Origin: Escherichia coli 042
GTDB lineage: Bacteria > Pseudomonadota > Gammaproteobacteria > Enterobacterales > Enterobacteriaceae
DNA: 64,000 nucleotides
Direction: 5' to 3' (one strand)
NCBI RefSeq assembly: GCF_000027125.1
Contig: NC_017626.1
This document shows, in pieces, positions 31,866 to 31,926 of the stretch; positions within the stretch are counted from its first letter, which is position 1, and the number at the start of each line of letters is the position of its first letter. The position numbers and the translations under genes are program-made. Under the pieces are notes generated by a model. That model made no database searches. It was not told the DNA's origin and was given only the letters and a program-made list of their open reading frames with translations.

Positions 31866-31926
31866 GGGGCGGGTCAAATCCCTGTGACCTGACGTCTTCC
31901 GGACTGCCCGCCCCATCGTTTTTTTA
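31866..31926 (+). other. GC-rich inverted repeat with T-tract; candidate terminator or cos-associated element
   Basis: GGGGCGGG (31866-31873) and CCCGCCCC (31907-31914) arms, then ATCGTTTTTTTA. Confidence 0.35.

Follow-up and report, generated by a model that had tools for sequence, protein, structure and literature searches.

Between two prophage genes in the window, by which we mean the whole 64,000-nucleotide stretch of Escherichia coli 042 DNA analysed here, lies a short inverted repeat composed only of G and C, and we asked what role, if any, this element plays. The left arm (GGGGCGGG, positions 31866-31873) and the right arm (CCCGCCCC, 31907-31914) are complementary at all eight positions and are spaced by 33 nt, with the right arm followed by ATCG (31915-31918) and a run of seven T residues (31919-31925). 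An earlier note on this DNA had reported an 8-bp G/C-only repeat with a 33-nt gap and a terminal TTTTTTT in the interval between an HNH gene and a small terminase gene, a description that agrees with the sequence and with Pfam searches, and had offered two readings of it, as part of a cos site or as an attenuator of the late operon.

The flanking genes form a packaging module, with the HNH and both terminase genes encoded on the plus strand. Upstream is an HNH endonuclease gene (31489-31839; 116 aa; Pfam HNH, E=2e-16; PHROG 144), in whose product the HNH domain is preceded by an N-terminal zinc ribbon, CxxxxC...CxxH. This protein is 36% identical to the N.phiGamma-type HNH protein of Bacillus phage Fah over its full length, including the zinc ribbon (E=4e-17), and 38% identical to HK97 gp74 over 65 aa; the gene encodes a terminase-associated nickase. 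A non-coding gap of 125 bp separates the HNH stop codon from the ATG (31965) of a small terminase gene (TerS; 31965-32459) of the P27 / Terminase_4 family (Pfam PF05119, E=2e-21; PHROG 83), which is preceded by a Shine-Dalgarno sequence, AGGAG (31952-31956), and whose start agrees with that of SfV orf1. The large terminase gene (TerL; 32456-34189) is of the HK97 type, with Pfam TerL_ATPase and TerL_nuclease domains, and its product shares 26% identity over 522 aa with HK97 gp2 (BLASTP, E=5e-30), which contains both of these Pfam domains. Genes for a portal protein and an S78 prohead protease (Pfam) are located 3' of TerL.

Statistically, the repeat stands out only mildly. Perfect inverted repeats of 8 bp made up of G and C alone, with loops of 3-50 nt, number two in the window, where a first-order Markov model predicts 0.32, and at least one such repeat occurs in 22% of 64-kb sequences simulated under this model. 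Thus, the reality of the feature rests on comparative and experimental evidence.

The comparative evidence identifies the locus closely. The 1-kb region around the repeat matches several E. coli and Salmonella phages, as well as the Shigella serotype-converting phages SfV, SfI, SfII and SfIV, at 95-99% identity, and the head and tail genes to the right of the site are 97% identical to those of SfV, SfI, SfII and SfIV. Several linear phage records open inside the interval, that of SfI at window position 31915 and those of SfV and SfIV at 31898. The termini of SfI virion DNA have been sequenced directly by run-off, which identified 10 nt, 5'-TGCCCGCCCC-3', that were absent in comparison to the prophage and that constitute cos (PMC3636060), and the same cos has been reported for SfIV (PMC3851460). 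Window positions 31905-31914 are identical to this end-mapping gap, within a surrounding region of 97-99% identity. As TGCCCGCCCC corresponds exactly to these positions, the right arm, which supplies eight of the ten bases, would therefore be the sticky end itself.

From the identity to this mapped relative, it is highly probable that 31905-31914 forms the cohesive end, or cosN overhang, and we have similarly little doubt that the element as a whole is the already characterised cos site of an SfV/SfI-like prophage, equipped with an HK97-type TerL, a P27-type TerS and an HNH nickase. The site lies between the HNH and TerS/TerL genes, matches the mapped ends of SfI, and is accompanied by a TerL of the HK97 clade. 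The suggestion that the repeat could belong to cos was in this respect more literally right than its wording implied, with the right arm falling inside the 10-nt end mapped in SfI (PMC3636060). As a cos site, the element is unremarkable and has been described before. A 301-bp region encompassing it was found in 1161 of 5426 complete E. coli genomes, indicating a very common prophage type, and the identification fixes the packaging cut and the genome ends for a prophage type present in around one-fifth of complete E. coli genomes.

We infer that the overhang is of 3' polarity, from the run-off gap in SfI and from the 3' overhangs of HK97. A 3' overhang would leave each template strand recessed, which would explain why the 10 nt are absent from both run-off reads. 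Against this polarity, the overhang of Wbeta-like phages has been termed 5' in one paper, on PhageTerm evidence (PMC8878798).

We investigated the relation between the two arms in two sets of relatives. Among 80 IMG/VR loci with a 99%-identical TerS, the sequence from 31897 (TTCCGGAC) rightward was almost invariant, and the overhang 10-mer was invariant among the distinct upstream sequences save for two variants with CGCCCGCCCC. The left arm varied in these loci (GGGGGAGG, GGGCAGG and GGGGCGTG), without a compensating change in the right arm. This set is too shallow for the study of covariation, and a diverged set was assembled by TerL alignment, taking one genome per species, which yielded 80 loci with TerL proteins 64-90% identical, from Enterobacterales, Pseudomonas, Burkholderia, Aeromonas, Pasteurellaceae and others. 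The 58 distinct sequences of this set could be aligned essentially without gaps. Across these 58 relatives, the mean number of in-register Watson-Crick pairs was 4.09 of 8 within loci versus 4.20 across loci (permutation p=0.92), and 65.7% of cells were paired versus 66.9% after column shuffling, the observed value being equalled or exceeded in 466 of 500 shuffles. RNAalifold returned 0 pairs and no consensus structure for the same sequences. Pairing at all eight in-register positions was retained in only two of the 58, the window and one other locus. The pairing of the arms is therefore not selected, and their complementarity in this lineage is coincidental, the arms being complementary because a G-rich and a C-rich element share one strand. 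What appears as a repeat is two independent and separately conserved cos sub-sites, with no hairpin involved, and the single functional unit implied by the earlier note was not supported.

These results weigh directly on a reading in which the inverted repeat is itself the unit, as a symmetric site for a dimeric terminase/HNH complex or as a cruciform marking cos. Partial two-fold symmetry is a feature of lambda cosN, and in the window the left arm with the adjoining TCA (GGGGCGGGTCA) nearly repeats, in inverted orientation, the bottom-strand overhang (GGGGCGGGCA). The longest stem was also marginally longer within than across loci (4.98 versus 4.82, p=0.057), but the complementarity of the arms is what column composition alone yields, and a functional repeat is difficult to reconcile with the loss of complete pairing in all but two relatives. 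HK97, phiKO2, Klebsiella phages and phi644-2 combine the conserved G-rich tract that contains the left arm (the G-box, see below) with non-complementary overhangs, and in phi105 and Paenibacillus phages a C-rich tract occupies the same strand as the C-rich overhang, making pairing impossible. We consider this reading very improbable.

An equally slight probability attaches to a Rho-independent terminator or attenuator, in which the G:C stem and U-run would halt or dampen transcription passing from the lysis and HNH genes to the head genes. As in intrinsic terminators, a T-run on the coding strand comes after a G:C-rich inverted repeat, the element lies between two gene blocks, where a terminator would be plausible, and RNA from the window can form, with feasible thermodynamics, an 8-bp G:C stem with a structured loop followed by U7. 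The loop, however, is of 33 nt in place of the usual 3-8 nt, AUCG (4 nt) intervenes between the stem and the U-run, and a scan for the terminator consensus did not call the element at 31866-31925. The predicted RNA fold of 31840-31965 was no better than those of shuffled sequences (-37.2 versus -34.2 +/- 3.9 kcal/mol, z = -0.79), and an Rfam search of 30500-33000 with permissive E-values retrieved only sub-threshold chance matches, none of which were at the element. Neither a short loop with an immediate U-run, nor structure beyond composition that is kept by compensatory change, was identified; the left arm is mutated without compensation even in near-identical prophages, the 58 relatives show neither covariation nor a consensus structure, and the T-run at +7 to +11 from the cut is conserved as DNA where a stem is impossible. 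A far better terminator-like hairpin is moreover located upstream, at 31296-31321. Late transcription in lambdoid phages is antiterminated by Q, and would read through a terminator in any case.

The reading as a terminator or attenuator thus fails every test run in this analysis, although incidental pausing or termination may occur at the window hairpin. The attenuator proposed in the earlier note is set aside on the loop length, the 4-nt spacer, the fold z-score, the absence of covariation in the relatives, and the conservation of the T-run without the stem, which removes a false terminator call from the locus. Weakest of all is the reading that the repeat arose by chance in GC-rich intergenic DNA and has no significance, which the simulated frequency above and the apparently coincidental complementarity would favour but which applies to the pairing alone, as each arm is strongly conserved and fixed relative to mapped genome ends. 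The sequence of the arms is thus functional, and their pairing is not.

Taking the element as a cos site, the 58-sequence alignment resolves four conserved blocks at fixed, ungapped positions, which are numbered here from the top-strand nick. The first is the G-box, GGGGAGGGGCGGG (31861-31873, -54 to -42), of which the last 8 nt are the left arm. Its GGG at -48 to -46 is invariant (1.9-2.0 bits, 58 distinct relatives), a G-box is found at the same distance in HK97, phiKO2, phi644-2, Fah and the Gordonia phage BoyNamedSue, and it changes without compensation in the right arm. It continues into the A-rich TCAAATCCC (31874-31882), in which AAA at -38 to -36 is conserved; HK97 and phiKO2 also have TCAAATC, located 34-35 nt before the genome terminus. 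A spacer with low column conservation (31883-31896), variable even among the loci with 99%-identical TerS, leads to the left flank of cosN, TTCCGGAC (31897-31904), with a conserved AC at -12/-11 (1.5 and 1.4 bits). The overhang that follows is GC-rich in relatives and variable in sequence.

On the other side of the cut, the first packaged bases of the left end are ATCG and the T7 tract (31915-31925, +1 to +11), of which +7 to +11 are conserved (1.6-2.0 bits) in relatives both with and without a preceding stem. The alignment places here a downstream block of T5-7 at +5 to +11, followed by (A/C)AC-CCGCGAAA-WWW-AAATTTAA to approximately +35 (window 31919-31949), and the T-run is a conserved DNA element within this block, on the packaged side of the cut. 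The block is conserved from E. coli to Burkholderia phi644-2 and to Pseudomonas and Moraxella prophages with a Terminase_4 TerS. Its portion beyond the T-run, ATAC-CCGCGAAAAATGAAATTTAA in the window (31926-31949, +12 to +35), is a candidate small-terminase site, comparable to cosB, from its conservation and its match in position to HK97. We predict that the block with CCGCGAAAAATGAAATTTAA is the binding site of the P27-type small terminase, which we regard as somewhat better supported than not, and ACCCGCGAAAAA at +14 to +25 of the window is its presumed counterpart to the HK97 TerS site.

Some relatives depart from this arrangement. In three Pseudomonas prophages, the ACCGCCCG motif is displaced upstream by around 11 nt compared with the remaining relatives and GGGGGG occupies the usual position of the overhang; these prophages could have a rearranged or differently spaced cosN. 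Two Klebsiella prophages have a window-like TerS type and the CCGCGAAAAATGAAATTTAA block, yet an HK97-like overhang, GAC^CGCCGCCTCA, and this mixture of parts indicates that the cos sub-sites assort as modules. We rejected two other interpretations of individual segments. The G-box contains just three G-runs and the tract may sit on the C strand, which does not fit a G-quadruplex, and the resemblance of GGTCAAATCC to a tRNA T-arm was accompanied by no tRNA-like Rfam match, the distance to the nick being fixed in phages of unrelated hosts.

From these positions we propose a model of cleavage. Following induction, concatemeric phage DNA would be cut at the site by two nicks staggered by 10 bp, that of the top strand at 31914/31915 and that of the bottom strand at 31904/31905 (context AC^TG), both positions being inferred. 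The nicks would release genomes with 10-nt 3' overhangs, the right end terminating in TGCCCGCCCC-3'. The left arm would form the 3' part of an upstream sub-site, comprising the G:C tract and TCAAATC, that ends approximately 31 bp, or three helical turns, before the bottom-strand nick. A TerS ring on the T-run and the CCGCGAAAAATGAAATTTAA block would most likely position TerL, as occurs in HK97 at +15 to +29, with HNH nicking the bottom strand (31904/31905) and TerL the top strand (31914/31915). Our judgement on this last assignment of strands is evenly divided.

The involvement of HNH has support from related systems. TerL-, TerS- and HNH-dependent cleavage of cos is documented for HK97 (PMC9410871) and for staphylococcal phages (PMC12967558), and the expectation of an HK97-like cos between HNH and TerS, with the HNH protein aiding cleavage, was correct (PMC9410871, PMC11331095). 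Phage HNH proteins encoded beside cos and the terminase genes are strand-specific nickases (Xu and Gupta, PMC3592412). N.phiGamma, found with an unchanged sequence in Wbeta and Cherry, cleaves at CG|GT, equivalent to AC^CG on the other strand, with a relaxed site of CA|GT (PMC3592412). Wbeta-like phages have a measured overhang of CGCCGCCCC (PMC8878798), which is preceded in Fah by GTAC, so that the bottom-strand edge of the overhang coincides with the nick site of N.phiGamma in vitro. In the 58-relative alignment, AC^YG is conserved across the family at the left edge of the overhang, and the window reads GGAC^TG (GAC^TG, 31902-31906). This match between the overhang edge and the specificity of N.phiGamma suggests that HNH makes the bottom-strand nick at cos. 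HK97 gp74 and other packaging HNH proteins, among them the lactococcal HrdP, appear non-specific in vitro (PMC3592412; PMC12967558), and the bottom-strand nick is therefore not firmly that of HNH. The annotated 7-nt overhang of phi105, which begins 1 nt past AC^C, also stands against the model.

The sub-site to which the left arm belongs is distributed well beyond the close relatives of the prophage. We observed a G:C tract of 10-13 bp, with a G-rich or sometimes C-rich top strand, that is usually followed by TCAAATC/AAATCTC and ends approximately 27-33 bp before AC^YG; tract and AC^YG recur together in modules of HK97-type TerL and HNH from Proteobacteria, Firmicutes and Actinobacteria. The right ends of phi105 (CCCCCCACCC-TTAAATCCC) and of Paenibacillus phage Fitz (CCCCCCCACCC-TTTTTC) carry it at the same place, Gordonia phage BoyNamedSue has TAGGGGGGCGGGTCA 42 nt from its end, and two actinobacterial relatives also possess the tract. 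A survey of 73 IMG/VR loci, with TerL proteins 35-99% identical to that of phi105 and the tract scored as any 12 consecutive nt that include nine or more G or nine or more C, located it upstream of the terminase genes in 38 loci and within TerL in three (Fisher p = 3e-11). Downstream of TerL it was found in 10 of 71 loci, versus the 38 upstream (p = 1e-6). Spacings between the tract and AC^CG cluster at 27-33 nt, with 31 nt in both the window and HK97. The tract occurs on either strand while the AAATCTCTGG that follows it keeps its orientation, which suggests a readout of shape or of the minor groove over base-specific recognition. No G-tract was seen in distant low-GC relatives of the Gordonia TerL (approximately 36% identity), indicating that the architecture is widespread and not universal.

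We found no description of the G:C tract in the searchable literature, a scope beyond which older subscription papers on HK97, phiKO2 and SfV fall. Our tentative proposal, held with rather less than even confidence, is that the left arm is part of a deeply conserved and undescribed cos sub-site, similar to cosQ, that would slow or position the motor or portal for the cutting of cosN, with AC^YG directing the bottom-strand nick by HNH and TerL making the top-strand nick. The cosQ-like role of the G-box, argued by analogy, is putative, and we are inclined to doubt it.

The comparison suggests that HK97-type/HNH cos sites may share a fixed architecture in four parts: the G:C tract; the AC^YG nick context; a GC-rich overhang of 9-10 nt; and a small-terminase block of an A/T-tract and a CGCG-type motif. 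These parts are mutable targets for asking which nuclease cuts which strand, an assignment between HNH and TerL that the literature still treats as open, and what besides the small-terminase roadblock stops the motor. This family-wide architecture is the part of the analysis that deserves specialist follow-up.

We additionally identified other features of the window that resemble the repeat or adjoin its module. Between an Rz-like lysis gene (30158-30595) and the HNH gene is an AT-rich island (30900-31400; GC approximately 35-39%, versus 50-59% on either side), containing an ORF of 83 aa (31025-31276; PHROG 16949, function unknown). The hairpin at 31296-31321 lies just 3' of this ORF and approximately 170 nt before the HNH gene; it is terminator-like in both directions (AAAAGCCTCG-TATT-CGCGGGGCTTTT), with 11 pairs, a 4-nt loop and a T-rich tail. 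The island, with the hairpin downstream of its ORF, looks like a moron-type insertion. The other G/C-only repeat (37480-37500; GGGGCGCGG-AACC-CCGCGCCCC) has a 9-bp stem and a 4-nt loop, lies 7 nt past a TAA stop codon, and is followed by CTGTTCTG, with no T-run; within the head-gene operon, this hairpin may serve to stabilise mRNA or act as a partial terminator. An inverted repeat of 8-10 bp on the minus strand (53746-53781; TTAGCGCAAG...), followed by T6, is the only other repeat of this kind with a T-run on its strand.

Finally, we compared the window site to known packaging systems. The closest are SfI, SfV, SfII and SfIV, which share the cohesive end TGCCCGCCCC and approximately 70 bp to its right in identical or near-identical form, along with the same HNH, TerS and TerL genes (95-99% nucleotide identity). 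The window copy differs from these phages in being integrated, as it appears, in an E. coli chromosome, the ends having been mapped for SfI, and between the HNH stop codon and the G-box its sequence is another mosaic variant from that of many relatives.

Among phages whose records have physical ends (HK97, phiKO2, phi644-2 and Fah), the G-box is situated 40-42 nt before the terminus. Exactly 10 nt follow GAC at the end of the HK97, phiKO2 and phi644-2 records, and 9 nt follow TAC at that of Fah. The joined ends of HK97 read GGGCAGGGGGGGGATCAAATC-(34 nt ending GAC^CGCCGCCAAA)|GTTTGAATTTAACGCTAACCCGATTTTTTTAG, and the counterpart in the window, GGGGCGGGTCAAATC-(34 nt ending GAC^TGCCCGCCCC)|ATCGTTTTTTTATACCCGCGAAAAATG, has the same distance. 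The corresponding tract, and the edge with its overhang, are GGGGGTAGGGGGGATCAAATCC and GAC^TGCCGCTTCA in phiKO2, GGGCGGGGAGGGGGG and GAC^CGCCCGCTTC in Burkholderia phi644-2, and GGGTAGGGGCGGGTCGAAAAAC and GTAC^CGCCGCCCC in Bacillus phage Fah. In phi644-2, from a beta-proteobacterial host of high GC content, the overhang leads into GTCAAATTTTCACGCCCGCGAAAAATGAAATTTAA, the downstream block of the window. Two further phages were discarded as comparisons: Vibrio phage VaK has an HNH-TerS gap of only around 6 nt, so that its cos must lie elsewhere and it is uninformative, and the record of Staphylococcus phage 3A does not end at cos.

HK97 has the same order of HNH, cos, TerS and TerL, with homologous TerL and HNH proteins, and shares with the window a G-tract and ATCAAATC at a distance of exactly 34 nt from the nick in the top strand, a C-rich 10-nt overhang whose left edge is marked by GAC^, and an ACCCG and A/T-tract motif downstream. 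Its overhangs are 3' and 10 nt in length, and gp74 stimulates their formation (PMC9410871). HK97 TerS binds a 15-bp site at +15 to +29 (CTAACCCGATTTTTT), in which Arg128 reads a C:G pair and an A-tract is needed for deformability (PMC11331095), and TerS at this site stalls the incoming motor, after which TerL cuts with stimulation by the HNH protein gp74 (PMC11331095; PMC9410871). In contrast to the window, the HK97 overhang (CGCCGCCAAA) is not part of an inverted repeat, the downstream motif is offset by approximately 4 nt, TerS has no detectable sequence similarity to the window TerS, gp74 lacks the N-terminal zinc ribbon (PMC3592412), and the HNH gene ends around 320 bp before cos, versus 65 bp in the window.

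The Bacillus phages Wbeta, Gamma and Fah have a near-identical G-box (GGGTAGGGGCGGGTC) that lies 40 nt before the terminus, an overhang edged by AC^CG, a Terminase_4 TerS, and a 36%-identical HNH protein with a zinc ribbon, whose CG|GT nick coincides with the overhang edge (PMC3592412; PMC8878798). They differ from the window in their 9-nt overhang (CGCCGCCCC), their low-GC Gram-positive host and their downstream block, and the nick context in the window is AC^TG and not AC^CG.

Lambda cos is likewise a three-part site, in which a staggered nick is flanked by a termination element upstream and a small-terminase site downstream, and the position of the G-box is similar to that of cosQ. Lambda cosQ, GGGTCCT, is located 24-30 bp before the nick and has GGGTC in common with GGGTCAAATCC of the window, a resemblance that we treat only as a lead. 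In contrast, lambda has 12-nt 5' overhangs, no HNH protein and unrelated terminase subunits, whereas the window site has a 10-nt end, an HNH gene, a Terminase_4 TerS and an HK97-type TerL. Thus, the window site works like lambda cos while lying outside the lambda family.
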